A stretch of 64,000 nucleotides of DNA from Escherichia coli (GTDB lineage Bacteria; Pseudomonadota; Gammaproteobacteria; Enterobacterales; Enterobacteriaceae): the NCBI RefSeq assembly GCF_024502345.1, contig NZ_JALDNN010000001.1, one strand, 5' to 3'. Every line of letters starts with the position of its first letter. Within the stretch, counting starts at the first letter, position 1. Of the stretch, positions 4,916 through 26,418 are shown in pieces. A model generated the notes under the pieces. It was not told the DNA's origin, ran no database searches, and worked only from the letters and a program-made list of their open reading frames with translations. The position numbers were made by a program, and so were the translations under genes.

Positions 4916-4947
4916 AGGCTCCGTTTGGGAAACGGAAAATATTGTAC
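4916..4947. repeat. outer 32 nt of a Tn3-family 38-bp terminal inverted repeat (copy a), split by an IS110-family insertion
   Basis: AGGCTCCGTTTGGGAAACGGAAAATATTGTAC resembles the intact IR at 15751-15788 (GGGGTCCGCTTGGAAAACGGAAATTATCCCAC read from outside); the remaining GTTAAG follows the IS at 6311-6316. Confidence 0.6.
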
Positions 4948-6310
4948 TATAAGGGCTTCCCCGGCATGTCAACGCCGGTTTTATAGTTTCTGTCTGCTCG
5001 TCAGTAAAATAAAGGGGAGAGACTGCGGTACTATAAACGGCCATGATAAATCGTTATCGATTCGGGCCCTGATGAAAGACGCGCGTGAGGTTCTTGTTCG
5101 TTAAGCGGATACGTATATCCTGTACAATAGCCAGATAGGCCTCACGGGGTCTAACCCTTTTTCATCAACGAGTTGCAGGTCAGATGGTTATACTGCTTTG
5201 TGCTTTAGCTGGCTGAGTACAGCCTGAAATCATCACCGTAATGCAACGATGCCCAGCACAGCCTCGCGTTTTTGGCGGCGATGGCTACAACAGCCCGCCA
5301 GTACCCCCTGCGCTCAACCAACTTACAAACCCAACGGCTGAATGAGTCAGTCCTTTTCTCTGCACCAATCAAAACCGAACGGGCCCCCTGAACCAGAAGC
5401 GTTCGCAGATATGAATCGCCCGCTTTCGTTATTCTGCCAAGCTTTGATTTTCCGCCACTGCTGTACTGTGATGGTGTAAGTCCCAGCCAGGCTGCCAGTT
5501 GGCGTCCATTCTTAAAATCATGGGCATTACCGATACTGGCGACCAGCGCACAGGCCGTTGTGGGACCAATCCCTTTCAGTTCCATCAGTCGTTGGCTGCG
5601 GTGATCCGTTTTTGCCATGCGGGACAGGATCCGGTCATATTCAGCGATGTTATCTTCAATGCGATTAATGTGTTCCAGCAGATCATCAACGCATTGCTGA
5701 ACCTGAAGCGGCAAAGAATTCTTCTGTTCAGAAACGATGTGGCGCAGGGCATCTGTACTTTGTGGAGCGATGACGCCGAATTCAGATATCAAACCTCTTA
5801 ATCGGTTATATGTTGCTGTTTTCTCTTCGATAAAACCTTGTCTGGTACGGTGTAGACATTGCATCGCCTGCTGGCTCTCATCCTTCACTGGCACGAACCG
5901 CATATGCGGGCGACGGACAGCCTCACAAATAGCCTGGGCATCAGCTGCATCATTTTTTCCTGATTTACCGGCCATGCGATATGGCGATACGAACTTTGCA
6001 GCCATCAAACGGGGCTCATGGCCATACTGCCGAAACACTCTTGCCCAGTAATGGGCGCCTGAGCACGCCTCCATCCCGATAACACAGGGAGGCAGGCTTG
6101 CAATTAACTCAGGAAGTGCAGCACGCGATACTTTAGGTTTAACCAGAACAGTTTTTCCATTTTGATCAACGCAGTGAACAGCGAACACATTTTTAGCAAG
6201 ATCGATACCGACAGTAGTGATAGTCATAACGAATCCCTCCAGGGCTATGTTTACCCCATGATTGCACAAGAGCTAATCAGGCACATATCCAGGGGAAGTC
6301 CCTTCCATTC
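4948..6310 (-). mobile_element. IS110-family insertion sequence, copy A (IS1111 / IS4321-IS5075-like), 1363 bp
   Basis: Bounded by TATAAGGGCTTCCCC (4948-) and GGGGAAGTCCCTTCCATTC (-6310); contains one IS110-family transposase gene; inserted inside a Tn3-family IR with no target duplication. Confidence 0.85.
5205..6227 (-). CDS. IS110-family transposase (340 aa from MTITTVGIDLAKN)
   Basis: N-terminal VGIDLAKN motif typical of IS110-family transposases; the ORF track begins 14 codons upstream, but copy B starts at the MTITTVGID methionine (6225-6227 here). Confidence 0.88.
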   Translation of the reverse strand: MTITTVGIDLAKNVFAVHCVDQNGKTVLVKPKVSRAALPELIASLPPCVIGMEACSGAHYWARVFRQYGHEPRLMAAKFVSPYRMAGKSGKNDAADAQAICEAVRRPHMRFVPVKDESQQAMQCLHRTRQGFIEEKTATYNRLRGLISEFGVIAPQSTDALRHIVSEQKNSLPLQVQQCVDDLLEHINRIEDNIAEYDRILSRMAKTDHRSQRLMELKGIGPTTACALVASIGNAHDFKNGRQLAAWLGLTPSQYSSGGKSKLGRITKAGDSYLRTLLVQGARSVLIGAEKRTDSFSRWVCKLVERRGYWRAVVAIAAKNARLCWASLHYGDDFRLYSAS

Positions 6311-6350
6311 GTTAAGATCAAATTTTAACCTGTAATACACTGATAAATTA

Positions 6351-6382
6351 GGGGCCCGCTTGGAAAACGGAAAATATCCTAC
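6351..6382. repeat. outer 32 nt of a Tn3-family 38-bp terminal inverted repeat (copy b), split by the second IS110-family insertion
   Basis: GGGGCCCGCTTGGAAAACGGAAAATATCCTAC, then the IS, then GTTAAG at 7746-7751 running directly into the tnpA remnant; together these reconstruct a 38-bp IR closely matching 15751-15788. Confidence 0.75.
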
Positions 6383-7745
6383 TATAAGGGCTTCCCCGAA
6401 CAGTCAACGCCGGTTTTTAATTTCTGTCTGTTCATCAATGAAAGGCAAGGGATAAGACTGCGCTACTATAAACGGTCATGCTGAATCGCTAGTGATTCGG
6501 ACCCTGATGAAAGACGCTCGTGAGATCCTCCTTCGTTAATCGGATAGTGATATCCAGTAGGATATGCAGATACTTCTCACGGGGGTCTAACCCTTTACCA
6601 TCAACAATTTACAGTTCAGTTACTACTCAGTTAAATTTTTCATGTTGTTGAATACAGTCTGAAGTCATCGCCGTAATGTAATGATGCCCAGCACAACCTC
6701 GCATTCTTGGCGGCGATTGCAACGACAGCACGCCAGTATCCCCGCCTACCAATCAACGAGCAGACCCAACGGCTAAACGGGTCCGTTCTATTCTCTGCCC
6801 CTACCATTACAGAACGGGCTCCCTGGACCAGTAGGGTTCGCAGATAGGCATCACCCGCTTTTGTTATCCTGCCAAGCTTTGATTTTCCGCCACTACTGTA
6901 TTGTGATGGCGTTAGCCCCAACCAGGCTGCCAGTTGGCGCCCGTTCTTAAAATCATGGGCATTGCCAATACTGGCGACCAGCGCACTCGCTGTGGTGGGC
7001 CCAACACCTTTCAGTTCCATTAACTGCTGGCTGCGATGATCTGTTTTGGCCACACGAGATAATACCCTGTCATATTCGGCGATTTTCTCTTCAATATTAG
7101 TGACATGTGTCAATAGATCATCAATGCACAGCCTAACCTGTACTGGCAGAGTTTCCTTCTGGTCAGAAACAACATGACGCAGAGCATCAGTGCTTTGTGG
7201 GGCAATAACCCCGAATTCAGATATCAGGCCCCGAAGACGGTTATACGTTGCTGTTCTTTCCTGGATAAATCCCTGTCTTGTCCGATGTAAGCATTGCATT
7301 GCCTGCTGGCTTTCGTCTTTGACTGGTACAAAGCGCATATGCGGCCGCTGCACTGCCTCACAAATAGCTATTGCATCAGCTGCATCATTTTTCCCGGTCT
7401 TACCCGCCATGCGATAGGGTGAGACAAATTTCGGAGCCATCAACCGGACATCATGGCCATACTGCCTGAATAATCTTGCCCAATAGTGGGCACCCGAGCA
7501 GGCTTCCATTCCAATGACACAGGGAGGTAAACCTGCGATGAGTTCAGAAAGTGCTGCACGCGACACCTTGGGTTTAACCAGAACAGCTTTACCATTTTGG
7601 TCAATGCAGTGAACAGCAAACACATTTTTAGCAAGATCGATACCGACAGTGGTGATGGTCATAACGAATCCCTCTGGGTCAATGTTTATCCTATGATTGC
7701 ACGAAAGTTAATCAGGCGCATATCTAGGGGAAGTCCCTTCCATTC
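6383..7745 (-). mobile_element. IS110-family insertion sequence, copy B, 1363 bp
   Basis: Same termini and same length as copy A; the transposase is about 88 percent identical to copy A by eye; inserted at the equivalent position of a second IR copy in the same orientation. Confidence 0.85.
6640..7662 (-). CDS. IS110-family transposase (340 aa)
   Basis: Intact ORF, a paralogue of the copy A transposase. Confidence 0.9.
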   Translation of the reverse strand: MTITTVGIDLAKNVFAVHCIDQNGKAVLVKPKVSRAALSELIAGLPPCVIGMEACSGAHYWARLFRQYGHDVRLMAPKFVSPYRMAGKTGKNDAADAIAICEAVQRPHMRFVPVKDESQQAMQCLHRTRQGFIQERTATYNRLRGLISEFGVIAPQSTDALRHVVSDQKETLPVQVRLCIDDLLTHVTNIEEKIAEYDRVLSRVAKTDHRSQQLMELKGVGPTTASALVASIGNAHDFKNGRQLAAWLGLTPSQYSSGGKSKLGRITKAGDAYLRTLLVQGARSVMVGAENRTDPFSRWVCSLIGRRGYWRAVVAIAAKNARLCWASLHYGDDFRLYSTT

Positions 7746-7746
7746 G

Positions 7747-8088
7747 TTAAGCCTGTTTTTTATACAGACTGCTATCTACTGAGCGTAACGAACGGTATTT
7801 TCCCTGTCCCAGCTTGAGGTTTGTTCGCCAGACGTAATCTCCACTCAAGTTGATGTGTTCCCATCCCAGCGGGGACAGATGAGAAATCAGCTGTTCATTT
7901 AGTGGGATCCCTTTTCGCTTCAGAGAATCTATGGCTCTTTCTATATATACCGTATTCCACAGTGAGATCGCCGCAGTCAGCAATGTCAGCCCGCTGGCCC
8001 GGTAGCTCTGGTTTTCCAGTCCCCGGTCTCTGATTTCCCCCAGCCGGTGCATAAAGACTGCTCGCGCTATAACAGCGCCCCCCCCCAC
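7747..8088 (-). pseudogene. tnpA: Tn3-family transposase TnpA, C-terminal remnant (about 110 codons)
   Basis: [53 protein letters not shown]...LYKKQA parallels the C-terminus of the intact TnpA at 12771-15755; ends next to the split IR; similarity is lost upstream at a poly-C tract near 8078-8086. Confidence 0.8.
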
Positions 8089-8267
8089 GAATCCCTGAAT
8101 AACCTGACACCGGAAGAGTACCGGCTGATGGCTGAAACCCCGGAAATCTCAAAAAGTGCGCGGAACTAAATCGGGTGACATAAAAAATTTCGAATGCTAA
8201 GAGGGCCGGCAGTCACCAGTAAAACCATAATGAGTAACTGCCTGATTAAAGTTGTGGGGATGTATAA

Positions 8268-9044
8268 TTAAAGATTAACGACTTCACCATCTTCAGGGAT
8301 ACTAACCTGGTCAGTAATCTTATTAAGATCTACATACTCATGGATTTCTTTTCGGGTTTGTCCAAAATGATTTACAGATTCCATATGTGTGGAAATAATA
8401 TGTGCTTTTGGAAGTATGTTATGTGTCCTTAGCACATCTTCTTTACCCATGATAATAGGCCCCAGATTTTCCACCTGCGCATATCCCGTATTCAGGATAA
8501 CGATATCAGGCTGATATTTATGCATAACCTGCTCTACATCATTAATCCAGATAGTATCACCAACTATATAGATAGTCTTTTCGCCATCAGACTGGAGAAT
8601 AACCCCCATAGCTTCACCTAATAGCTCTGCCGCAGCGGGGTTGCGGAATGCCTCATCACTACCATGTTGACAGTGAGTTGGAATTAAGCGAATTCCGGCG
8701 TATTCAATTTCATTATCAAGAACTTGTAGGTTAATAAATCCATCGCGGGCCAGTTCGTTTTTGTCTTCAGTATTCTGTACAAAAATAAGCATATCGCGAG
8801 GGATCAGCGCCCGGGCAGCAGCATCCCAGTGGTCATCATGCGTATGAGTAACAATAATAGCATCTACATCAATAACCTCTGATACCGGTAGAGGTAAGTC
8901 AACAAGAGGGTTCCGTAAATGGCGGTTCATCGTCAATGGAAAACCAGGGAATGAACCTTTTGCTGATAACATCGGGTCAATCAGGATTTTTTTTCCTGCA
9001 TAATGAATAATTGCAGTGGCGTTACGGATCTGATGAAATTTCAT
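8268..9044 (-). CDS. MBL-fold metallo-hydrolase (258 aa)
   Basis: Metal-binding motif THTHDDHWD (HxHxDH); no N-terminal signal peptide, so not an obvious secreted class B beta-lactamase. Confidence 0.8.
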   Translation of the reverse strand: MKFHQIRNATAIIHYAGKKILIDPMLSAKGSFPGFPLTMNRHLRNPLVDLPLPVSEVIDVDAIIVTHTHDDHWDAAARALIPRDMLIFVQNTEDKNELARDGFINLQVLDNEIEYAGIRLIPTHCQHGSDEAFRNPAAAELLGEAMGVILQSDGEKTIYIVGDTIWINDVEQVMHKYQPDIVILNTGYAQVENLGPIIMGKEDVLRTHNILPKAHIISTHMESVNHFGQTRKEIHEYVDLNKITDQVSIPEDGEVVNL

Positions 9045-9114
9045 AATAGAACTCCAGTTCTGTATTAACAGAACACAGTAAGAGGATTAATTTACTTTCC
9101 AGCTGGCAGAAGTT

Positions 9115-9896
9115 TTATATCGCTTCTGAACCCCTGAATGTTTTTCGCCATACGGACGGCGATACGCCAAATTTTGCGATAAACTTTTCCCGTAAAGATG
9201 TTGCGGAACTAAAACCAACCAGCTCAGATACCTTCTGTACAGAGTGGGCTGTAGATTCCAGTAATACCTGCGCTTCTCTCAGACGCTCCGTTGTTAACCA
9301 GTCAACCAGTGTCATGCCCGTCGACTGTCGGAAGCGGCGTGTAAAGGTTCGTCGGCTCATGCTAACGACTTCACAAAGTTCATCCAGCGTCCAGCGTCTG
9401 GCCAGGTCCTGGCGCAGCGTTTCAACCAGCAGAATTATCTGGCGATCCTTTGTTGCAGATGGAAAAGGCATCTGAATATACTGAGCCTGTCCCCCGTCCC
9501 GATGAGGCGGGATCACCATTCGCCTTGCTATCTGATTGGCAATATTGCTCCCGTACAACTCCCTGACCAGATACAGACAGCAGTCCATACCCGCACCTGT
9601 ACCGGCAGAAGTAATAATATTATCGTCAGCTACATAGAGCGCATTCATATCCAGGTGGGTATTCGGAAACCGTGACTGAAAATCACTCTCATACAACCAG
9701 TGTGTCGACGCGTTTCTTGCATCCAGTAGTCCTGAATAGGCCAGAGCATAGGCACCAAGGCACAAACCCACAATGGTGGCATTATGCTGTGCAGCTTCCC
9801 GGAGTGCTTCCGTTAACTGTGGCTCCGGTACAATGTCAGGCGATGGCCAGAAAGGAACTATAACCATGTCAGCAGTACGTAACACCGATAAGTCAT
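9115..9896 (-). pseudogene. GlxA-type regulator (DJ-1/PfpI-like domain + AraC-family HTH), C-terminal part of a gene split by the IS2-like element
   Basis: DJ-1-type nucleophile region IVGLCLGAYALA followed by an AraC-type HTH (RRTFTRRFRQSTGMTLVDWL); the frame stays open upstream to the IS boundary at 9896. Confidence 0.8.
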
Positions 9897-9987
9897 TGAT
9901 GTAGCCCCCTGAAACACCGGACAGTAGCTGTATCTCCAGATAAGAGATAGGCTTGAATATATGTCTAACACTAACGCCAATTTTGAG

Positions 9988-10356
9988 ATGACCGGGATCC
10001 TGTTAGGGCAAGAAGTCCGTAAACGTAAAACTCCTCAGGAGAAGATCGCCATTATCCAGCAGACGATGGAGCCGGGTATGAATGTCTCCCATGTCGCCCG
10101 CCTGCATGGTATCCAGCCCAGCCTGCTGTTTAAGTGGAAGAAGCAATATCAGGAAGGCAGCCTCACCGCCGTTGCGGCTGGAGAGGAAGTCGTTCCTGCT
10201 TCTGAGCTTACTGCTGCTCTGAAGCAGGTCCGGGAGCTTCAGCGCCTTCTGGGCAAGAAAACGATGGAAGTTGAGATCCTGAAAGAAGCCGTGGAGTACG
10301 GTCAGTCGCGAAAATGGATAGCGCACGCGCCCTTGTTGCCAAAGGACGGGGAATAG
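9988..10356 (+). CDS. IS2-like orfA (InsC-like)
   Basis: [25 protein letters not shown]...[18 protein letters not shown] parallels IS2 InsC; start taken at the internal ATG 9988 rather than the ORF-track start 9961. Confidence 0.85.
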
Positions 10357-11195
10357 CCATGGTCAGCCGGACCATGGGCGTGTCGCGTGCGCAACTGTCA
10401 CTGCGGATTAACCGTTCTGCCGACTGGCAGGACAGGCGCTGTAACCGGCGTAATGAAGAAGCAGACGCAGAAATACTGTCGGCTATCCTCAACATTATCA
10501 GCGATATGCCGAGTTATGGTTATCGACGCGTGTGGGGCATCCTGCGCAAGCAACGTCGCACAGAGGGACAGCCACCTGTGAATGCCAAACGGCTTTACAG
10601 GATAATGAGCGAGCATAACCTGTTGTTGTTGCATCACAAACCAGAGCGACCGAAGCGTGAACATAAGGGCAAGATAGCGGTGGCAGAAAGCGATATGCGC
10701 TGGTGTTCAGATGGCTTCGAGTTCGGCTGCGACAACGGCGAAAAACTGCGGGTAACGTTCGCGCTGGACTGCTGCGACCGTGAGGCCATAGACTGGGCAG
10801 CAAGCACGGGAGGCTATGACAGTTCGACCGTGCAGGATGTGATGCTGAGGTCGGTGGAAAAGCGCTTCGGCGACAGGTTGCCCGACACAGCGGTGCAGTG
10901 GCTGACGGATAACGGTTCAGCGTATACCGCGTATGAAACGCGGAGGTTCGCGAGAGAGCTGAATCTGGAGCCCTGCACAACAGCGGTGAGCAGCCCGCAG
11001 AGTAATGGCATGGCCGAACGGTTCGTGAAAACGATGAAAGAAGACTATATCGCGTTCATGCCAAAACCGGATGTGAGAACAGCACTGCGAAACCTTGCAG
11101 TAGCGTTCACGCATTACAATGAAAACCACCCGCACAGCGCGCTGGGATATCACTCCCCGAGGGAATACCGGCGGCAGCGGACATCGTTAACTTAA
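10314..11195 (+). CDS. IS2-like orfB (InsD-like, integrase-core domain)
   Basis: MDSARAL...[26 protein letters not shown]...WLTDNGS...[13 protein letters not shown] parallels IS2 InsD. Confidence 0.88.
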
Positions 11196-11232
11196 GATAC
11201 AAAAGCTGTTCGGAGATGGAGGGTCAAGATCA

Positions 11233-11419
11233 ACACCGATAAGTCATATTCCGGTGTAATATGCATACCATGTGAGGTTTTTATAGTCTTTCCCTGCACG
11301 GAGCATAAAACAACGTTAAATAATGAATGGTCCGGGATAATATCTGCAAAAATTGCCAGGGGTACGGAGAGATGAAATGCACTGATATCATCGGTTATCA
11401 AAATGGCTATCTTTTTCAT
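11233..11419 (-). pseudogene. GlxA-type regulator, N-terminal 61 codons (MKKIAILITDDISAFHLSVPLAIF)
   Basis: Start codon at 11417-11419 with a GGAGAG ribosome-binding site; the frame ends inside the IS2-like element; the sequence continues in 9115-9896 after a 15-16 bp direct repeat. Confidence 0.75.
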
Positions 11420-11438
11420 TTCATACTCTCCTGTAAGA

Positions 11439-11843
11439 TTAACTAATCTGACGTACGATATCGTTATAATCAAAGTGCGCACGTTTTTCCTTAATTTTAC
11501 CGCCTTCAATAGTCAGCAGCATCATCAGAGAAATACGTACTTTTTTCCCGGTTGGTTTATATCCGTGCATTTCATTATTGTGGATACCTTCAAAAACAAC
11601 ATAAGCTACGACTTTATCCGCTTCACTGATAAGAACTTCAGGCTTCATGCTGAAGCCCCGGAATCCATCAAGTGTGGCAGTTTCAGATGCGATAAAACCG
11701 TCAACTCCATGAATGGGGTTATCTATCTGTGAATAGAAAACAAAGTCACTGGAGCAAAGTGATTTAAGGGTTAAAAAATCATAACCTTCAAGAGCCTGAT
11801 AAAAATCATGTACAAGTTTTTCATTTGAGTTTTTCATGGTCAT
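11439..11843 (-). CDS. SnoaL-like / NTF2-fold protein (134 aa)
   Basis: Small ORF 19 bp upstream of the regulator gene on the same strand; sequence pattern resembles SnoaL/ketosteroid-isomerase-like proteins (family call is tentative). Confidence 0.6.
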   Translation of the reverse strand: MTMKNSNEKLVHDFYQALEGYDFLTLKSLCSSDFVFYSQIDNPIHGVDGFIASETATLDGFRGFSMKPEVLISEADKVVAYVVFEGIHNNEMHGYKPTGKKVRISLMMLLTIEGGKIKEKRAHFDYNDIVRQIS

Positions 11844-12035
11844 TCACCTTTTTGTCTGGAGTAAGGACATTCTACGTGGTGTACACAAGTGAGTGCGAGT
11901 GACCAAAAAGACATTAATCAACATGATTGGGCCATTGTTATGAGAAAAAGGCTCCCCCCGCTGGGTTTCAACATCTGCCTGTGTTAAGCCCGCTCATAGC
12001 ACATAGCATAACGTCCAGCTGAGAACTCACGGTCA

Positions 12036-12611
12036 TTACTGTCCTGCCTTTACCCTGAGTATGGTTTGCCGGGTTGTATTAAACTCCCGAGCAATGGCGC
12101 TGATACTGGCCCCGGCCTTAATACGTGCAATCACAGAAAGTTTCTGTTCTTCATTCAGTGTTGAAGGACGGCCAAACCGCTTTCCGGCAGCTTTCGCTCT
12201 CGCAATACCAGAGTGCGTACGCTCAAGAAGCAAATCCCTTTCAAATTCTGCCACAGCAGAGATGACCTGCATGGTCATTTTTCCTGCCGGGCTTGTCAAA
12301 TCAACTCCGCCCAGCGCGAGGCAGTGAACGCGAATATCTGAAGCAGCCAGTTGTTCAACCGTTTTTCTGATATCCATCGCATTGCGCCCCAGTCGGTCGA
12401 GTTTAGTAACAATCAGCACATCACCATTTTCCATGCGATCAAGCAGCCGGATAAATCCGGGGCGTTCGCTGGCAGCAACCGAACCACTGATATGCTCCTC
12501 AATCAGTCGCTGGGGTCTGATGGCAAAACCCGCCGTTTCAATTTCACGCCGCTGATTTTCTGTAGTCTGTTCCAGAGTGGAGACCCGGCAATAAGCAAAA
12601 ACTCGTGACAT
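12036..12611 (-). CDS. tnpR: serine recombinase / resolvase TnpR (191 aa from [15 protein letters not shown])
   Basis: N-terminal catalytic serine motif (YCRVST) and C-terminal HTH; divergent from tnpA; start taken at the internal ATG 12609-12611 rather than the ORF-track start. Confidence 0.88.
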
Positions 12612-12770
12612 AGGAAACTTTCCGTACGTAAAGGATGTCCGAATTATAGCGTGTGTACGAAATAAATTTCGCTTACTTTCGGACATACTGTCAGCTTAGT
12701 GTACGAAACCGACCGGTTTCGGTCACAGCGAACAAATAACAGATGAAAACTATACGCGAGGGAGGCATTT

Positions 12771-15755
12771 ATGCCACGGCGACAGATACTGAGCAGCGAA
12801 GAGCAGGAACGCTTACTGGTTATACCAGATGATGAAATTATTCTGACCCGAATGTGTTTTCTGAACGAACCGGATATTGCGCTCATTAATAAGCACCGAA
12901 GGCCAGCGAATCGCCTGGGCTTTGCTGTATTACTCTGTTATCTGCGTGGACCTGGATTTATTCCGGACAAAAGCAGTGCTCCTCACAATGGCGTTGTATC
13001 CAGGGTTGCTTCCCGACTGAAACTTCAGCCTGATTTATGGCCGGAATATGCATCCAGAGAGCAAACCCGCTGGGAACATCTGACCGAACTTTATCGCTAC
13101 CTGGAACTATCCCCGTTCAGCCGGTCAATGCAAAAAGACTGTATCCGTCATCTGCACCCCTATGCCATGCGAACTGACAAAGGATTTATGCTGGCGGAAG
13201 AAATGCTCAGCTGGCTACATAACAATAATGTTATTTTCCCTTCTGTTGAAGTGATCGAACGGACGCTTGCCGAAGTCGTCACGCTCGCTAACAGATCGGT
13301 ATTTTCGACACTTACCGCGCAACTGGAAAAGCAGCATAAATCAGCACTCGACAGCCTGCTCATATCAGAGGGTGAACAACCTTCCCGTCTGGCATGGCTG
13401 CTACAGCCTCCGGGTAAAATAAACGGTAAAAATGTGCTGCAACATATCGACCGGCTTAATTCCATCGCTGCGCTGGGGTTGCCTGATGGTATTGCACTTT
13501 CCGTTCACCAGAACAGGTTGCTTAAACTGGCGCGTGAGGGCCGGAAAATGAGCAGCAGGGACCTGGCAAAATTCACCGATGTCAGACGTTACGCTACGCT
13601 GGTTTGTATAATAACAGAGGCCAGGGCCACCCTGACTGACGAAGTGATTGATCTGCACGAGCGTATCCTGGGTAGTCTGTTCAGCAGGGCAAAACGCACG
13701 CAGGCCGAACGGCTCCAGCAAACGGGAAAGCTTATTCAGAGCAAGCTGAAGCAGTACGTTACCGTCGGGCAGGCGTTACTTAACGCCAGAGAATCCGGGG
13801 AAGATCCCTGGACTGCAATAGAAGATGTCCTTCCCTGGCAGGAATTCATCAACAGCGTGGAAGAAACGCGGTTTCTTTCCCGTAAGGGCAATTTCGACGC
13901 GCTTCATCTGATCACCGAAAAATACAGTACGTTGCGTAAATATGCCCCGCGTATGCTGTCAGCATTGCAGTTCATGGCGACACCTGCGGCGCAGGCGCTC
14001 AGCGATGCGCTGGACACCATAACGGAAATGTACCGTAAACAACTTCGTAAAGTGCCGCCATCAGCGCCAACAGGGTTTATCCCTGAAAGCTGGCGAAAAC
14101 TGGTGCTCACGCCTTCAGGCATCGACCGCAAGTACTACGAGTTTTGCGTACTGAATGAACTCAAGGGTGCATTACGTTCCGGTGATATCTGGGTAAAAGG
14201 ATCGCGCCGCTACAAAAATTTTGATGATTATCTCATCCCGACTGCTGAGTTTGAGAAATCCCGACATAATGACCAGTTACAGTTGGCCGTTCAGACCGAT
14301 AGCCAGGCATACCTTCAGGCCCGTATGACTCTTCTTGCATCTCGGCTGGAAGAAGTTAACGCGATGGCGCTTGCCGGTGATTTGCCCGATGTAGATATCT
14401 CAGATAAAGGCGTAAAAATCACTCCACTGGAGAACAGCGTTCCTTCAGGTGTTTCGCCCTTTGCAGATTTGGTCTATGGCATGCTTCCCCATCCGAAAAT
14501 TACGGAGATACTGGAAGAAGTTGATAGCTGGACGGGATTTACGCGTCACTTCGCGCACCTCAAAAATAATAACGTCAGACCAAAAGACGGAAGACTGTTG
14601 CTGACCACCATTCTGGCTGACGGCATCAACCTTGGGCTGACAAAAATGGCGGAATCCTGCCCTGGGGCCACAAGATCGTCACTCGAAGGTATTCAGACAT
14701 GGTACATCAGGGATGAAACTTATTCAGCGGCACTGGCCGAGCTGGTCAACGCACAGAAAGAGCGGCCTCTGGCCGCATTCTGGGGCGACGGGACAACATC
14801 GTCGTCAGACGGGCAGAACTTTCGGGTAGGCAGTCACGGACGTTATGCCGGTCAGGTCAATCTTAAATATGGTCAGGAGCCGGGCGTGCAGATTTATACG
14901 CATATCTCAGACCAATACAGCCCGTTCTACGCCAAAGTGATCAGCCGGGTGCGCGACTCAACCCACGTGCTTGATGGCCTGCTGTACCATGAAAGCGATC
15001 TGGAAATTACCGAGCATTACACCGATACCGCAGGCTTCACTGAACATGTTTTCGCCCTGATGCACCTGCTGGGATTCGCTTTTGCGCCAAGGATCCGTGA
15101 TCTTCATGACAAGCGGCTGTTTATTCATGGAAAGGCCGAGCGCTATCCGGGGCTTCAGTCTGTCATATCAACAACCTGCCTGAATATCAAAGACATTGAG
15201 TCGCACTGGGATGAGGTATTGCGCCTGGCAACCTCGATTAAGCAGGGGACAGTCACCGCATCACTGATGATGAAAAAGTTAGCCAGTTACCCAAAACAGA
15301 ATGGACTTGCCAAAGCGCTGAGAGAGATTGGCCGCATCGAACGGACACTATTTATGCTGGACTGGTTCCGTGATCCCGGTCTGCGCCGACGCGTGCAGGC
15401 GGGGCTGAATAAGGGTGAGGCCCGTAATGCCCTTGCGCGAGCGGTCTTTTTGCACCGTCTGGGTGAAATAAGGGATCGTGGGCTGGAGAATCAGAGTTAT
15501 CGCGCCAGCGGGCTGACATTACTGACAGCAGCGATCACGTTGTGGAACACGGTATATATAGAAAGAGCTATTGAGTCACTAAAACGAAAGGGTATCCCGA
15601 TAAATGAGCAACTGGTCTCTCATCTTTCTCCCCTGGGCTGGGAACATATCAATCTGAGTGGAGATTACGTCTGGCGTAATAATCTTAAGCTGGGATCCGG
15701 AAAATACCGCTCATTACGTACAGTCGATACCGCTTTGTACAAAAAACAGTCTTAG
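12771..15755 (+). CDS. tnpA: Tn3-family transposase TnpA (994 aa)
   Basis: Size and sequence pattern typical of Tn3-family TnpA (about 1000 aa); the stop codon lies inside the terminal IR. Confidence 0.93.
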   Translation: MPRRQILSSEEQERLLVIPDDEIILTRMCFLNEPDIALINKHRRPANRLGFAVLLCYLRGPGFIPDKSSAPHNGVVSRVASRLKLQPDLWPEYASREQTRWEHLTELYRYLELSPFSRSMQKDCIRHLHPYAMRTDKGFMLAEEMLSWLHNNNVIFPSVEVIERTLAEVVTLANRSVFSTLTAQLEKQHKSALDSLLISEGEQPSRLAWLLQPPGKINGKNVLQHIDRLNSIAALGLPDGIALSVHQNRLLKLAREGRKMSSRDLAKFTDVRRYATLVCIITEARATLTDEVIDLHERILGSLFSRAKRTQAERLQQTGKLIQSKLKQYVTVGQALLNARESGEDPWTAIEDVLPWQEFINSVEETRFLSRKGNFDALHLITEKYSTLRKYAPRMLSALQFMATPAAQALSDALDTITEMYRKQLRKVPPSAPTGFIPESWRKLVLTPSGIDRKYYEFCVLNELKGALRSGDIWVKGSRRYKNFDDYLIPTAEFEKSRHNDQLQLAVQTDSQAYLQARMTLLASRLEEVNAMALAGDLPDVDISDKGVKITPLENSVPSGVSPFADLVYGMLPHPKITEILEEVDSWTGFTRHFAHLKNNNVRPKDGRLLLTTILADGINLGLTKMAESCPGATRSSLEGIQTWYIRDETYSAALAELVNAQKERPLAAFWGDGTTSSSDGQNFRVGSHGRYAGQVNLKYGQEPGVQIYTHISDQYSPFYAKVISRVRDSTHVLDGLLYHESDLEITEHYTDTAGFTEHVFALMHLLGFAFAPRIRDLHDKRLFIHGKAERYPGLQSVISTTCLNIKDIESHWDEVLRLATSIKQGTVTASLMMKKLASYPKQNGLAKALREIGRIERTLFMLDWFRDPGLRRRVQAGLNKGEARNALARAVFLHRLGEIRDRGLENQSYRASGLTLLTAAITLWNTVYIERAIESLKRKGIPINEQLVSHLSPLGWEHINLSGDYVWRNNLKLGSGKYRSLRTVDTALYKKQS

Positions 15756-15788
15756 CGTGGGATAATTTCCGTTTTCCAAGCGGACCCC
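15751..15788. repeat. Tn3-family 38-bp terminal inverted repeat (tnpA-proximal end)
   Basis: Reverse complement reads GGGGTCCGCTTGGAAAACGGAAATTATCCCACGCTAAG; starts with GGGG and ends TAAG, as in Tn3-family IRs. Confidence 0.85.
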
Positions 15789-15858
15789 AGGGAGAGCTGA
15801 GAACATTAAATTTTAATATAAACAAAGAATTACCTTCTTAGCGTACGTTACCGTCCCA

Positions 15859-16092
15859 TTGGCCCTCAAACCCCTCAACACCCTGATGGAACGTTTTTTT
15901 AGAAGTCTGAAAACAGAATGGGTGCCGGATAATGGATACGCTAATTTTAGCGAAGCCAGCACAGCGATAACGAATTACATAACGGGATATTACAGCCAGC
16001 TCAGACCTCATCAATATAACGGTAGTTTGACGCGGAATGAATCAGAACGATTGCTCTGGAAAAACTCTAAAGCCGTGGCCAACTATTGTTGA
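15859..16092 (+). pseudogene. IS3-family orfB C-terminal fragment
   Basis: MERFFRSLKTEWVP...YYSQLRPHQYNGSLTRNESERLLW is the typical C-terminus of an IS3-family OrfB; only about 75-90 codons remain (frame open from about 15817), directly to the right of the Tn3-family IR. Confidence 0.7.
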
Positions 16093-19507: not shown

Positions 19508-20565
19508 GGCTTTGTTGAATAAATCAGATTTCGGGTAAGTCTCCCCCGTAGCGGGTTGTGTTTTCAGGCAATACGCACGCTTTCAGGCATACCTGCTTTC
19601 GTCATTTTGTTCAGCGCTCGTACCAGGGCCATAGCCTCTGCAACCTGACCATCGTAGTCACGCAGTGTCAGTGAACCCCCGAACAGCTGTTTTACCCGGT
19701 ACATCGCCGTTTCCGCTATCGAGCGACGGTTGTAATCTGTTGTCCATTTCCACCGCGCATTACTCCCGGTCATTCGCTGATTAGCCACTGCACGGTTACG
19801 GTCTGCATATTCACCGGGCCAGTAACCCGCACCTTTTCGGGGAGGGATAAGCGCGCTGATTTTCTTACGCCGCAGTTCATCGTGACATAGCCGGGTATCG
19901 TAAGCGCCATCGGCGGCGGCTGACCTGATTTTCCGGTGGGTTTGCCGGATTAACCCGGGGAAGGCCTCTGAGTCCGTAACGTTGTTCAGCGACAGGTCAG
20001 CGCAGATGATTTCATGTGTTTTACTGTCAACGGCGAGATGCAGCTTACGCCAGATACGGCGGCGTTCCTGGCCATGCTTTTTGACTTTCCACTCGCCTTC
20101 ACCGAAGACCTTCAGCCCGGTGGAATCAATTACCAGGTGTGCGATTTCACCCCGGGTGGGCGTTTTGAAACTGACATTAACCGACTTTGCCCGCCTGCTG
20201 ACACAGCTGTAATCCGGGCAGCGTAGCGGAACGTTCATCAGAGAAAAAATGGAATCAATAAAGCCCTGCGCAGCGCGCAGGGTCAGCCTGAATACGCGTT
20301 TAATGACCAAGCACAGTCGTGATGGCAAGGTCAGAATAGCGCTGAGGTCTGCCTCGTGAAGAAGGTGTTGCTGACTCATACCAGGCCTGAATAGCTTCAT
20401 CATCCAGCCAGAAAGTTATGGAGCCACGGTTGATGAGGGCTTTATTGTAGGTGGGCCAGTTGGTGATTTTGAACTTTTGCTTTGCCACGGAACGGTCTGC
20501 GTTGTCGGGAAGATACGTGATCTGATCCTTCAACTCAGCAAAAGTTCGATTTATTCAACAAAGCC
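19508..20565 (-). mobile_element. IS903-like element, copy 1 (1058 bp), flanked by a 9-bp target duplication
   Basis: IRs GGCTTTGTTGAATAAATC at 19508- and inverted ending 20565; direct repeats CCTCGTTTC at 19499-19507 and 20566-20574. Confidence 0.93.
19564..20533 (-). pseudogene. IS903 transposase, frameshifted
   Basis: Split into two ORFs (20300-20533 and 19564-20403); relative to copy 2 there is a 1-nt insertion near 20309-20310 (accaagcac versus accagcac). Confidence 0.9.
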
Positions 20566-20598
20566 CCTCGTTTCCTCTCTTCATGACACCCTGACTCA

Positions 20599-23177: not shown

Positions 23178-25361
23178 CTAAGCGCGTTTGATTTCAACCA
23201 GGTTGGTATGTTGCGGGTTCCCTTTCGCCAGCGGCGACGGCAGGTGGCTGGTCAATGTGTTAATACATCCACCCACGTCCACACCGTTGCTGTCCAGTCG
23301 GGTCCACGCGCCTTGCGGCATTGCCACCACGCCCGGCAGGATGCGCTGTGTCACCTTGCAGGGGATCTCCACCACACCGCGATCGTTGAATACATGGACC
23401 ATATCGCCTGATTTCAACTGACGCACGCTGGCGTCTATCGGGTTGATCCAGACTTCATCCGGTACCGCTTCATGCAGCATCAGCACACTGGCATATGTTG
23501 AGTGCGTGTGACCTTTGGTGTGAAAACCGCTCATCTGTAGCGGATACTTTGCTGTCAGACTCTTGTTCAGATGGGACTCTGTCACTATACAAAATTCAGG
23601 AACAGCCGGAATGCGATCTCCTTCCGGTAGTGTCCAGGCTTTAGCCAGTTCCGCCAGAGTGTGCGAGTAAATCTCAATCTTCCCGGAAGGTGTCGTCAGT
23701 GGACTGGCAACCGGATCATGGCGGAAATCAGCAAGGATAATACTGTCCTCATCACGAGTACCTTGCTGATCGATAACCCCCATATTCATTGCAACTTCCC
23801 ATTCAGGCAGATATGATCGCTTCTCTTTAACTTGTCCGTAATGCTTCGCCATCCACTCTGCCTGAGTACGCCCCTCAGTAAAACGCTCTCTTACCCCAAG
23901 ATGCCCCGCAATATCTGCACAGATATCATAGGTACTGCGTACTTCCCACATCGGTGTGATCGTTTTTTGCATTGCAATCATGTAATGGTGAGAACCGGCT
24001 GCATAGGAACTGTCCACCAGATCCTCGGCTTCTAAGTAGCTAGTTTCTGGAAGAAGGATATCGGCAAAGCGGGCACTGGCAGTCATATGATTATCAATAA
24101 CCACGATAGTTTCGCACAGGCTGTCATCTTCAAGTATTTTGCGTGTACGATTGATATTTCCATGTTGATTCAGAAGTGCATTCCCGGCCTGGTTGAAGAA
24201 CAGTTTAATACCGGTTTTCAGTTTATCCGCGCCTTTAACCCCCATAGTGGTGGCTGTCATTTTTTCCGGACTTTGAATCGCATCTGTCCACAGATAGCAG
24301 GGGATTGACACCTTAACGGGATTTTCACCAATCGGCAGAGCAGGAACACCATAAGGTGTTCCGTATGTCCAGTTCCCATTGTTGGTTCCTGGCAATCCAA
24401 AATGACCCGTCAGGGCAGGAAGTATCTGAACCGCTCTGGAAGTCTGTTCACCATTTGCATGACGCTGTGGCCCCCATCCCTGGGCAATGAAACAGGCCCG
24501 AGCTTCGGCCATTTCACGTGCCAACTGGCGAATACGAATAGCCGGGATGCCACAGATATCTGCCGCCCATTCAGGTGTTTTTTCGACGCCGTCATCACCG
24601 TTACCCAGAACATAGTCTTTATAACTGGCATTTGGTTTCGCCGTTTCCGGAAGGGTGCTACGATCATAACCGACACAATAAGTATTGACTCGTTCTTCGT
24701 CGATCAGATTTTCTTTTATCAACGTGTGTGCAATAGCTGCTACCAGTGCAGCATCGGTTGTAGGGCGAATTGGTAACCATTCAGCATGTTCTGTAACAAC
24801 AGAGTCTGTATAGCGCGGATCGATGATAATCACCCGGGCGCCTGATATTTCCAGCGCACGGCGCAGTTCTTCAACTTGCCCACCACCGGACATCCGAGTC
24901 TCAGATAAATTCAGACCAAAAAAAACCACAAGATCAGAATGCGCAATCTGGCTAAAATGACTGGCAAACTGTACTCCTGTAGCACCATACGTGTAAGATG
25001 TGGCGGTAAAGTTTTGAGCGTTTGAGTAATTATTGTAATACTGCAGAAAACCGCCATTCAGGTTCAATAACCTTTTCCATGCGGGTGTTCCTTGGTTATG
25101 ATAATACGCGCCAGATTGATAATTAAAATAGATTGCTTCATTTCCATATTTTTCAGAAACGCGCTTTAATTCAGCGGCAATAAAGGCTGTGGCCTCATCC
25201 CATGAAATACGTTTAAATTTCCCTTCTCCGCGTTTACCAACACGTTTCATCGGATATTTAATCCGGTCAGGGCTGTAAACTCGCCAGCGGCTGGAACGAC
25301 CTCGCAGACAGGGACGGATTTGGTGTTCACCGAATACCGAATCATCCTTAGCATCTTCCGG
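23178..25361 (-). pseudogene. DmsA-like molybdopterin oxidoreductase catalytic subunit, 5'-truncated by IS903 copy 2
   Basis: Frame stays open to the IS903 boundary (PEDAKDDSVFGEHQIRPCLRGRSSRWRVYSPDRIKYPMKRVG) and matches DmsA from about residue 85; the Tat signal and N-terminal Cys-cluster region are missing. Confidence 0.88.
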
Positions 25362-26418
25362 GGCTTTGTTGAATAAATCGAACTTTTGCTGAGTTGAAGG
25401 ATCAGATCACGTATCTTCCCGACAACGCAGACCGTTCCGTGGCAAAGCAAAAGTTCAAAATCACCAACTGGCCCACCTACAATAAAGCCCTCATCAACCG
25501 TGGCTCCATAACTTTCTGGCTGGATGATGAAGCTATTCAGGCCTGGTATGAGTCAGCAACACCTTCTTCACGAGGCAGACCTCAGCGCTATTCTGACCTT
25601 GCCATCACGACTGTGCTGGTCATTAAACGCGTATTCAGGCTGACCCTGCGCGCTGCGCAGGGCTTTATTGATTCCATTTTTTCTCTGATGAACGTTCCGC
25701 TACGCTGCCCGGATTACAGCTGTGTCAGCAGGCGGGCAAAGTCGGTTAATGTCAGTTTCAAAACGCCCACCCGGGGTGAAATCGCACACCTGGTAATTGA
25801 TTCCACCGGGCTGAAGGTCTTCGGTGAAGGCGAGTGGAAAGTCAAAAAGCATGGCCAGGAACGCCGCCGTATCTGGCGTAAGCTGCATCTCGCCGTTGAC
25901 AGTAAAACACATGAAATCATCTGCGCTGACCTGTCGCTGAACAACGTTACGGACTCAGAGGCCTTCCCCGGGTTAATCCGGCAAACCCACCGGAAAATCA
26001 GGTCAGCCGCCGCCGATGGCGCTTACGATACCCGGCTATGTCACGATGAACTGCGGCGTAAGAAAATCAGCGCGCTTATCCCTCCCCGAAAAGGTGCGGG
26101 TTACTGGCCCGGTGAATATGCAGACCGTAACCGTGCAGTGGCTAATCAGCGAATGACCGGGAGTAATGCGCGGTGGAAATGGACAACAGATTACAACCGT
26201 CGCTCGATAGCGGAAACGGCGATGTACCGGGTAAAACAGCTGTTCGGGGGTTCACTGACACTGCGTGACTACGATGGTCAGGTTGCAGAGGCTATGGCCC
26301 TGGTACGAGCGCTGAACAAAATGACGAAAGCAGGTATGCCTGAAAGCGTGCGTATTGCCTGAAAACACAACCCGCTACGGGGGAGACTTACCCGAAATCT
26401 GATTTATTCAACAAAGCC
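25362..26418 (+). mobile_element. IS903-like element, copy 2 (1057 bp), without target duplication
   Basis: IRs GGCTTTGTTGAATAAATCG at 25362- and inverted ending 26418; flanks ATCTTCCGG and CCGGTTGAA are not a direct repeat. Confidence 0.93.
25394..26362 (+). CDS. IS903 transposase (intact; likely 307 aa from the GTG at 25439)
   Basis: Matches IS903/IS102-type transposase as recalled (KQKFKITNWPTYNKALINRGS...MPESVRIA); the ORF track extends it upstream to a TTG. Confidence 0.92.
   Translation: MKDQITYLPDNADRSVAKQKFKITNWPTYNKALINRGSITFWLDDEAIQAWYESATPSSRGRPQRYSDLAITTVLVIKRVFRLTLRAAQGFIDSIFSLMNVPLRCPDYSCVSRRAKSVNVSFKTPTRGEIAHLVIDSTGLKVFGEGEWKVKKHGQERRRIWRKLHLAVDSKTHEIICADLSLNNVTDSEAFPGLIRQTHRKIRSAAADGAYDTRLCHDELRRKKISALIPPRKGAGYWPGEYADRNRAVANQRMTGSNARWKWTTDYNRRSIAETAMYRVKQLFGGSLTLRDYDGQVAEAMALVRALNKMTKAGMPESVRIA

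Follow-up and report, generated by a model that had tools for sequence, protein, structure and literature searches.

The stretch of Escherichia coli DNA analysed here (64,000 nucleotides of contig NZ_JALDNN010000001.1, hereafter the window) carries tnpR, a spacer with the putative res site and tnpA, as an initial annotation had claimed; domain searches confirm the two genes, and TGTnCGAAA dyads are present in the spacer. The annotation was also right about a canonical 38-bp right inverted repeat (IRR), which holds the tnpA stop codon in its inner end. The question raised by this locus is where the element ends on the other side. A degenerate repeat at 11950-11988, a one-ended or decayed element, and a larger structure with its true left repeat among the IS110-occupied inverted repeats (IRs) further left had all been proposed.

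The last proposal holds. We are highly confident that the tnpR-res-tnpA block belongs, as the right-hand transposition module, to a complete Tn3-family transposon with two ends that covers 6351-15788, its left repeat (IRL) starting at 6351, 5.6 kb to the left of the degenerate candidate. The uninterrupted form, found on the E. coli plasmid pAA-ST131 (NZ_KY706108.1), measures 6,723 bp (~6.7 kb), and alignment of the window with the reference copy gives 99.7-99.9% identity from IRL to IRR, two insertion sequences (IS) excepted. From left to right, the transposon consists of IRL, the 3′ remnant of a related tnpA, an IS3-type fragment, genes for an MBL-fold hydrolase, a GlxA/AraC-type regulator and a SnoaL-like cyclase, tnpR, res, tnpA and IRR (Table 1). 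It is an ordinary mosaic within the Tn3 family; literature searches by IR sequence and cargo returned no Tn name or description for it.

Table 1. Features of the transposon copy in the window (comparison loci are given by their L numbers).
Feature	Position	Strand	Basis
IRL, outer 32 of 38 nt: GGGGCCCGCTTGGAAAACGGAAAATATCCTAC	6351-6382	+	Exact match to IRL of intact copies in L001, L006, L008, L010; found as inverted-repeat pair by repeat search
IS110-family IS (IS1111-type, IS5708-like), 1,363 bp (boundary +/-1), between IRL positions 32/33	6383-7745	-	Pfam, NCBIfam, empty sites
IRL, inner 6 nt (GTTAAG)	7746-7751	+	Continuity with intact IRL in L001, L006
3′ remnant of a second, related tnpA, last 107 codons (324 nt)	7747-8070	-	RefSeq copies: partial Tn3 family transposase
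Short C-terminal fragment of IS3-family integrase (orfB), inside the transposon	8085-8171	+	In L001 at 6340-6425; 'integrase, incomplete' in L004, L010
MBL-fold metallo-hydrolase passenger gene, 258 aa	8268-9044	-	Pfam Lactamase_B_2 3.3e-13; RefSeq annotation in all copies
GlxA-type regulator (DJ-1/PfpI + AraC HTH) passenger gene, 3′ part	9115-9896	-	Pfam HTH_18, HTH_AraC, DJ-1_PfpI
IS2-like IS3-family IS, 1,335 bp; orfA 9961-10356, orfB 10314-11195	9897-11231	+	Pfam HTH_Tnp_1 + rve
GlxA-type regulator gene, 5′ part	11232-11419	-	Alignment to L001 8136-8323
SnoaL-like 'ester cyclase' passenger gene, 134 aa	11439-11843	-	Pfam SnoaL 1e-24; RefSeq annotation
tnpR, serine resolvase, 191 aa, N-terminus with conserved serine	12036-12611	-	Pfam Resolvase 5.8e-38 + HTH_7; translation
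Putative res region, 159-bp tnpR-tnpA spacer	12612-12770	.	Repeated TGTnCGAAA-type half-sites in dyads
tnpA, intact Tn3-family DDE transposase, 994 aa	12771-15755	+	Pfam DDE_Tnp_Tn3 7e-150 + DUF4158; NCBIfam NF033527
IRR, 38 bp: GGGGTCCGCTTGGAAAACGGAAATTATCCCACGCTAAG	15751-15788	-	Overlaps tnpA stop codon; homology to >100 plasmid copies ends at 15788/15789

The ends of the transposon are set by target duplications. The intact copy on pAA-ST131 has IRL (GGGGCCCGCTTGGAAAACGGAAAATATCCTACGTTAAG) and IRR with ATATT on each side, and perfect 5-bp duplications border copies at three more unrelated sites, namely TCATT (EC24 chromosome), TGCTA (AH62 chromosome) and TAAAT (p2017.13.01CC_3), the probability of each such match by chance being about 1/1024. 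The 5-bp duplication expected of the Tn3 family is thus seen in four independent copies and is missing from the window copy and from that on pSE11-2, which has also lost tnpR. The two repeats are of the Tn3 type (~38 bp, GGGG...TAAG) and identical at 34 of 38 positions in the intact form; in the window copy, an IS divides IRL into 32 + 6 nt. The suggestion of a one-ended or decayed element accordingly falls, intact two-ended copies being flanked by duplications at IRL and IRR. Complete or nearly complete copies occur in 10 of 5,426 complete E. coli genomes and truncated ones in many more, so that the transposon is rare in E. coli yet recurs.

Both transposition proteins contain their full family domains. 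TnpA has the length of a Tn3-type DDE transposase (~1000 aa); the DDE_Tnp_Tn3 match spans the whole 389-position profile, and NCBIfam transpos_Tn3 (NF033527) scores 1209.9 bits (cutoff 500). At the amino acid level, the protein in the window is 100% identical to that of the duplication-bearing pAA-ST131 copy. By family membership, the element would be expected to move by replicative transposition: TnpA would act on both 38-bp repeats, forming a cointegrate and duplicating 5 bp of the target, and the serine resolvase TnpR would then resolve the cointegrate at res (PMC7157771). With tnpR and tnpA divergent, res and its three subsites are expected between the genes (PMC7157771). Repeat patterns in the spacer suggest where these subsites may lie, one putative dyad being GTGTACGAAACCG/CGGTTTCGGTCAC at 12699-12726 (repeat search). 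A promoter and terminator scan of 11800-12800 gave nothing above shuffled expectation. Many E. coli chromosomes share a homology break at the position corresponding to 12730; recombination at res was rejected as its cause, as in L006 and L007 the break proved to be an IS1 insertion or deletion in res.

The passenger genes (hydrolase, regulator and cyclase) have no recognisable resistance function. The tnpA remnant next to IRL, which belongs to the transposon in all copies, matches the 3′ terminus of the resident tnpA at 81% of nucleotides and 89% of amino acids (BLASTP, 95 of 107 identical); a repeat search reports the pair as an inverted repeat, 7745-8067 against 15435-15757, at 81%.

Two insertions came later in the window copy, an IS110/IS1111-type element in IRL (between positions 32 and 33) and an IS2-like element in the regulator gene. 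The latter splits a gene that is intact in L001 (954 nt, 7370-8323), where the IS is absent, and is found in the window copy only. It is bordered by a 16-bp direct repeat, AACACCGATAAGTCAT (9881-9896 and 11232-11247), that is single-copy in L001, and scores 416.5 bits for the NCBIfam IS2 TnpB subfamily (below the 597-bit cutoff) and 199 bits for transpos_IS3. The element in IRL has a transposase ORF at 6640-7662 with Pfam DEDD_Tnp_IS110 (PF01548) and Transposase_20 (PF02371) domains, an NCBIfam transpos_IS110 score of 356.8 bits and subterminal repeats GGGCTTCCCC / GGGGAAGTCCC; its counterpart in L005 is named IS5708 family transposase in RefSeq. Uninterrupted IRLs are present in L006 (7989-8026) and L001 (5970-6007). 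In the window, two diverged IS110-type copies occupy the same TAC|GTTAAG position in two IRs, and strain mip270_04 has empty sites for both, without duplication. A DEDD transposase, subterminal repeats and site-specific insertion without target duplication are all as in the IS110/IS1111 group.

Because the IS5708-like element begins with TATAAG, 36 of the 38 IRL positions remain contiguous. These first bases mimic the displaced GTTAAG, and the transposon could, though improbably, stay mobile with the IS as a passenger. IS5075, by comparison, sits at IR position 22/23 in L004, L005 and L011, where it occupies the IRs of this transposon and, unlike the IS5708-like element at 32/33, destroys the repeat. 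According to the title of Partridge & Hall 2003 (reference 1 of PMC11187229), IS5075 targets the IRs of Tn21-family transposons.

The window copy itself is located in a chromosomal island of E. coli, with a relic of another Tn3-family transposon on each side, two different ones in all. Its flanks (AATTA and AGGGA) do not match, which holds likewise for the copies in the same island in L004 and L005. Unmatched flanks leave arrival by simple transposition unsupported; together with the position between two relics, they indicate that the window copy either underwent rearrangement once inserted or was put together at this site. Its own left and right junctions have no plasmid match in PLSDB and were met only in island copies on chromosomes, L004 and L005 among them. 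The left flank's continuation in other replicons (CTGCGCACCTCC..., L003) is absent elsewhere in the window, where it was sought as a sign of an inversion or a split target.

Among the alternatives to our reading, the one that survives best has the 6.7-kb transposon originate by assembly in the island and takes the island copy as the ancestor of the duplication-bearing copies; we consider this unlikely, though it deserves some weight. The IRL-tnpA remnant end, 33 bp inside a further repeat (IR_a, at 4916), would have been joined by deletion to the cargo-tnpR-res-tnpA-IRR part lying in a Tn1000-like tnpA, the joined parts being the ends of two different Tn21-type elements, and the island copy would never have had a target duplication. 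The relics of two different Tn3-family elements on its flanks and the 81%-diverged second tnpA end at its left would fit such an origin, and so would the lack of a reciprocal junction (IRR followed by AATTACTGCG...), for which a search of 5,426 complete E. coli genomes gave only partial, IR-only matches. However, a missing reciprocal junction is weak negative evidence, and recombination between copies at different sites, or an adjacent deletion, would explain the unmatched flanks equally well. Both this birthplace reading and the carriage of the IS5708-like element by a still-mobile transposon (36/38 repeat) are improbable.

A functional unit larger than the 6.7-kb transposon, which would then be nested within it, appears very improbable. 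To the left, IR_a (AGGCTCCGTTTGGGAAACGGAAAATATTGTAC...GTTAAG, also IS110-occupied) has the orientation of IRL and is identical to it at 29 of 38 positions, but it lacks the terminal GGGG and is found on its own, with its 33-bp inner flank, in many plasmids, e.g. in L003. To the right, IRR is followed by 48 bp of a Tn1000-like tnpA 3′ end (15789-15836) and by a second 38-bp repeat, IR_b (15837-15874). IR_b is oriented as IRR is; against its being an outer end, these 86 bp match the terminus of a Tn1000-like transposon at about 91% identity, the TnpA of that transposon shares just 29% identity with that of our element, and the remainder of this Tn1000-like transposon is absent from the window. 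IR_a and IR_b are moreover of different types, and no copy bounded by either with a duplication was seen. The IS3-family orfB fragment noticed in the initial annotation does exist on this side; it begins at 15875, abutting IR_b, and not immediately right of IRR. The module thus did not land in or next to an IS3 element, as had been supposed. Its right border falls within the 3′-terminal part of the Tn1000-like remnant, and it is the repeat of that remnant, not the module, that truncates orfB.

That the element is the tnpR-res-tnpA module only, one-ended or with a decayed left repeat at 11950-11988, can be dismissed almost entirely: the candidate does share the GG start and GTTAAG end of the true repeats, and the homology of modules with about 97% identity and other cargo stops near it, at the tnpR stop codon (12039-12042) in >100 plasmids, but its identity (15/38 to IRR, 17/38 to the true IRL, best ungapped) is at chance level, it lies outside those ~97% modules, and it is internal to every copy of 99.9-100% identity, the ends of which are set by duplications at IRL and IRR. 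On both strands of the window, about 4,400 38-mers match IRR at 15 or more positions and about 740 match the true IRL at 17 or more; real IR copies score 33-38 in the same comparison. The resemblance is hence a chance one; the candidate is part of the cargo and lies in the intergenic spacer that separates the cyclase gene from tnpR. The flanks reported with it, AAAAA (11945-11949) and AGGGA (15789-15793), were read correctly. The initial annotation would have yielded to a reference copy with its left repeat elsewhere and without 11950-11988; reference copies do place the repeat elsewhere, but they keep this sequence as cargo, and it is absent only from the ~97% modules. For one of these, with SulP/USP cargo in Salmonella p33836-1, no left IR was found within 5 kb upstream.

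As to the relatives of the complete transposon, TnpA (~990 aa) is 56% identical over 99% of its length to transposases of the TnAs3, ISPa38 and TnShfr1 families, which we take to form part of the Tn21 subgroup. The best named matches and the IR type suggest an affinity with this subgroup: the 38-bp repeats are of the GGGG...AAAACGGAAA...ACGCTAAG type, they are targeted by IS5075/IS4321-type IS1111-family elements, and the target duplication is 5 bp. The element differs from the subgroup in a cargo without recognisable resistance function and in its divergent tnpR (-) and tnpA (+), which flank the res region as they do in Tn3; in Tn501 of the Tn21 subgroup, tnpR is colinear with tnpA and res lies upstream (PMC7157771). 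The divergent layout is shared with Tn5403 and Tn1000 (gamma-delta), and a Tn1000-like IR and tnpA end directly adjoin our element. Our element belongs to neither, as its TnpA shares only 36% identity with a transposase fragment that RefSeq assigns to the 'Tn5403 family' and 29% with Tn1000-like TnpA.

An unnamed relative on plasmid NZ_CP019987.1 of Citrobacter werkmanii BF-6 is much closer, with TnpA 86% identical over all 994 aa and repeats identical at 36 of 38 positions. It has SulP/USP cargo upstream of tnpR, and its resolvase (207 aa) differs in being colinear with tnpA and only 28% identical. One transposase lineage has therefore been joined to two unrelated resolution modules.

In Tn1721, a Tn21-subgroup transposon, a shortened second copy of the tnpA 3′ end comes next after the cargo-side IR. 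In our element, too, the cargo-side IR is followed by an inward-facing tnpA remnant of 324 nt. By analogy, this suggests that the cargo may have been captured between two inverted transposon ends, one copy then being mostly deleted. In contrast to Tn1721, the remnant shares no more than 81% identity with the resident tnpA, and it thus comes from a related element and is not a duplicate of the resident gene; no internal third IR was found in the element.

This finding matters little beyond correct annotation, in that the locus holds a standard Tn3-family transposon with defined ends, a cargo and several insertion events. It is also a place where IS1111-type elements accumulate in Tn21-type IRs, hiding the transposon ends from annotators working by eye. 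Module shuffling in the Tn3 family is clearly illustrated here: a Tn21-like transposase and IRs go together with a divergent resolvase module of Tn3 style, and the 86%-identical transposase of the relative works alongside an unrelated colinear resolvase.

The left terminal inverted repeat (IRL) of this Tn3-family transposon lies at window position 6351, where an IS110-family element splits it. A repeat search of the window pairs the right terminal inverted repeat (IRR) with GGGGCCCGCTTGGAAAACGGAAAATATCCTAC... at 6351 (87% over 38 nt), and 7745–8067, inverted, with the 323-nt 3′ end of tnpA (81%). By megablast against PLSDB, E. coli plasmid pAA-ST131 (NZ_KY706108.1) matches window 7745–15789 at 99.9–100%; its left IR is unbroken (GGGGCCCGCTTGGAAAACGGAAAATATCCTACGTTAAG), and the unit from IRL to IRR is 6,723 bp long with ATATT on both sides. 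This uninterrupted copy is used as reference (L001). A script run on all collected copies identified three further insertions, independent of one another, each with an exact 5-bp duplication at its ends: TCATT in the EC24 chromosome (next to an integrase, close to a cluster of tRNA genes), TGCTA around an internally deleted copy in the AH62 chromosome, and TAAAT in plasmid p2017.13.01CC_3. Four copies carry such duplications; therefore the unit between IRL and IRR is a genuine transposon and has transposed in its entirety on four or more occasions. The initial annotation had considered, as the third of its alternatives, a larger structure with an IS110-occupied left IR, and the intact pAA-ST131 copy and the duplications show this alternative to be correct.

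The degenerate left IR proposed at 11950–11988 is not real; the stretch is intergenic, with the SnoaL-like cyclase gene on one side and the end of tnpR on the other. In the best ungapped register it matches IRR at 15/38 and the true IRL at 17/38 positions, which is chance level: on both strands of the window, about 4,400 38-mers match IRR and about 740 match IRL equally well. With the same scoring, genuine IR copies reach 33–38 and a diverged solo IR 28–29. The candidate is hence rejected as a chance resemblance.

The genes of the module and its right IR are as first described, namely a resolvase (N-terminal 12 aa read from translation), a Tn3-type transposase (1209.9 bits against NCBIfam transpos_Tn3, cutoff 500), and a 38-bp IR whose inner end contains the tnpA stop codon; Pfam, NCBIfam and the sequence itself support this. 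According to ORF list and sequence, tnpR and tnpA are on opposite strands, separated by 159 bp. This spacer (12612–12770) contains repeated TGTnCGAAA-type half-sites set as dyads, the clearest being GTGTACGAAACCG/CGGTTTCGGTCAC at 12699–12726, adjoining tnpA. Where tnpR and tnpA of a Tn3-type element diverge, the region between them holds res with its three subsites, of which site III adjoins tnpR and site I is the place of recombination (PMC7157771). Because of this layout, the dyad is a candidate site I. Many island copies in E. coli chromosomes are cut by IS1 at res point 12730 and have lost tnpA (L006 and L007, two of the collected copies, were compared). In L007, the tnpA' remnant is moreover duplicated in tandem next to IRL.

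Features of the transposon and its surroundings (window coordinates unless stated otherwise)
Feature	Coordinates	Strand	Details
IR_a, solo diverged IR	4916–4947 + 6311–6316		AGGCTCCGTTTGGGAAACGGAAAATATTGTAC / GTTAAG
Second IS110-type element, in IR_a	4948–6310		transposase ORF 5205–6269
IRL, outer 32 nt	6351–6382		split from inner part
IS110-family element, IS1111 type, within IRL			1,363 bp; DEDD_Tnp_IS110 + Transposase_20
IRL, inner GTTAAG	7746–7751
MBL-fold hydrolase gene (cargo)	8268–9044
GlxA-type DJ-1/AraC regulator gene (cargo)			intact in reference, broken in window
IS2-like IS3-family element	9897–11231		1,335 bp; inside regulator gene
SnoaL-like cyclase gene (cargo)	11439–11843
tnpR, serine resolvase	12036–12611	-	191 aa; Pfam Resolvase 5.8e-38, HTH_7 3.9e-13
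tnpA, Tn3-type transposase	12771–15755	+	994 aa; DDE_Tnp_Tn3 7e-150, DUF4158 6.3e-44
IRR	15751–15788	-	38 bp; GGGGTCCGCTTGGAAAACGGAAATTATCCCACGCTAAG; from sequence
Second IR, Tn1000 type	15837–15874	-	GGGGTTTGAGGGCCAATGGGACGGTAACGTACGCTAAG; 48 bp right of IRR, same orientation
Reference element	NZ_KY706108.1 70092–76814	reverse	6,723 bp

Except for two insertions, window and reference are 99.7–99.9% identical in the alignment. The window copy (9,438 bp, 6351–15788) is the reference with both ISs and 16 duplicated base pairs added, and with a 1-bp indel. The IS in IRL has subterminal repeats GGGCTTCCCC / GGGGAAGTCCC. Inward of IRL lie 107 codons left over from a related tnpA (89% amino acid identity), followed by a short IS3-type integrase fragment and the cargo genes, after which the element ends with tnpR, res, tnpA and IRR, in this order. 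A 16-bp direct repeat, AACACCGATAAGTCAT, flanks the IS2-like element at 9881–9896 and 11232–11247 and is single-copy in the reference (L001 8136–8151). Duplications of IS3-family elements usually measure 3–5 bp, and this repeat is far longer than expected for the family.

Two different IS1111-type elements occupy two distinct fixed sites of one 38-bp IR. The IS5708-like element in IRL occupies IR position 32/33 (window 6382/6383) and starts with TATAAG, because of which the IR remains contiguous at 36/38. IS5075 occupies the element's IRs at position 22/23 in three other copies (L004, 9010, and L005, 4674 and 15375, both from the same island; and L011), and its insertion destroys the IR. IR_a, left of IRL, is split at the identical TAC|GTTAAG position, and the IS110-type elements in the two IRs are about 80–87% identical to each other; this doubling gives 4916–6350 the appearance of a 1,435-bp tandem repeat (80–87% identity). 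L005 carries three consecutive IS110-family elements in the same region (unnamed, IS5075, IS5708-like). In strain mip270_04, IR_a and IRL are both unoccupied, that is, empty sites.

E. coli chromosomal sequence (pqqL, yddB, gadBC, dosP) makes up the window from about 26420 on, and therefore the element lies in a chromosomal mosaic island, which is also present with both window junctions in the E. coli chromosomes NZ_CP062853.1 and NZ_LR536431.1. In the window, a ~1.06-kb IS occurs in two perfect inverted copies (19508–20567 and 25360–26418; arms of 802 + 258 nt, 100% complementary), enclosing ~4.8 kb with genes of the DMSO/selenate-reductase type; chromosomal homology (pqqL–gadBC region) starts at the end of the right copy, at about 26420. 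Arranged in this way, the pair resembles a composite transposon placed at the border of the island.

On the left, 33 bp separate IRL from IR_a, and IR_a with these 33 bp is found alone in many plasmids, followed by unrelated sequence. On the right, a Tn1000-like tnpA contributes its final 48 bp (15789–15836), which lead into the second IR, belonging to the same Tn1000-like element; these 86 bp share ~91% identity with the termini of intact elements, which thousands of plasmids carry. The IS3-family orfB fragment, initially placed immediately right of IRR, starts beyond this second IR (15875–16092), by which it is truncated, and not by the module. The relics on the two sides of the element thus derive from two different Tn3-family transposons, and the 5-bp flanks of the window copy, AATTA (left) vs AGGGA (right), show no duplication. 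The unmatched flanks may be due to a second copy, through recombination or deletion, or else the element may have been put together on site out of two separate ends. A query built as a synthetic reciprocal junction had no match in 5,426 complete genomes, which is evidence too weak to separate the two explanations. If recombination of two copies were true, the parental junctions would be left ...GATAAATTA with right AATTA..., and left ...TTTTGAAGGGA.

The outer 20 nt of IRR (15769–15788) are identical to CCGTTTTCCAAGCGGACCCC, a published reverse primer for colicin V PCR (Table 1, PMC12456677), and this identity indicates that the "colicin V" primer would anneal to a Tn3-family IR, not to a colicin-specific sequence.

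Literature search found no name for the element. Of the 5,426 complete E. coli genomes, 10 have the element complete or nearly so, and many more have it in truncated form. The module from tnpR to IRR is present at ~97% identity in more than 100 plasmids (Klebsiella, Salmonella, Providencia and other genera), where homology ends exactly at the tnpR stop codon (12039–12042) and other cargo follows, e.g. SulP and USP genes; cargo is therefore swapped at the tnpR-distal border. A Citrobacter element has a TnpA 86% identical and near-identical IRs, but its resolvase is colinear with its tnpA and only 28% identical to the TnpR studied here. Among named families, TnAs3, ISPa38 and TnShfr1 come closest (56% identity); the Tn5403 family and the Tn1000-like element reach 36% and 29%. 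The IR type, together with IS5075 in the IRs of three other copies, points to a Tn21-type transposition module combined with a divergent resolution module in the style of Tn3. Within its well-understood family, the element is an ordinary case.
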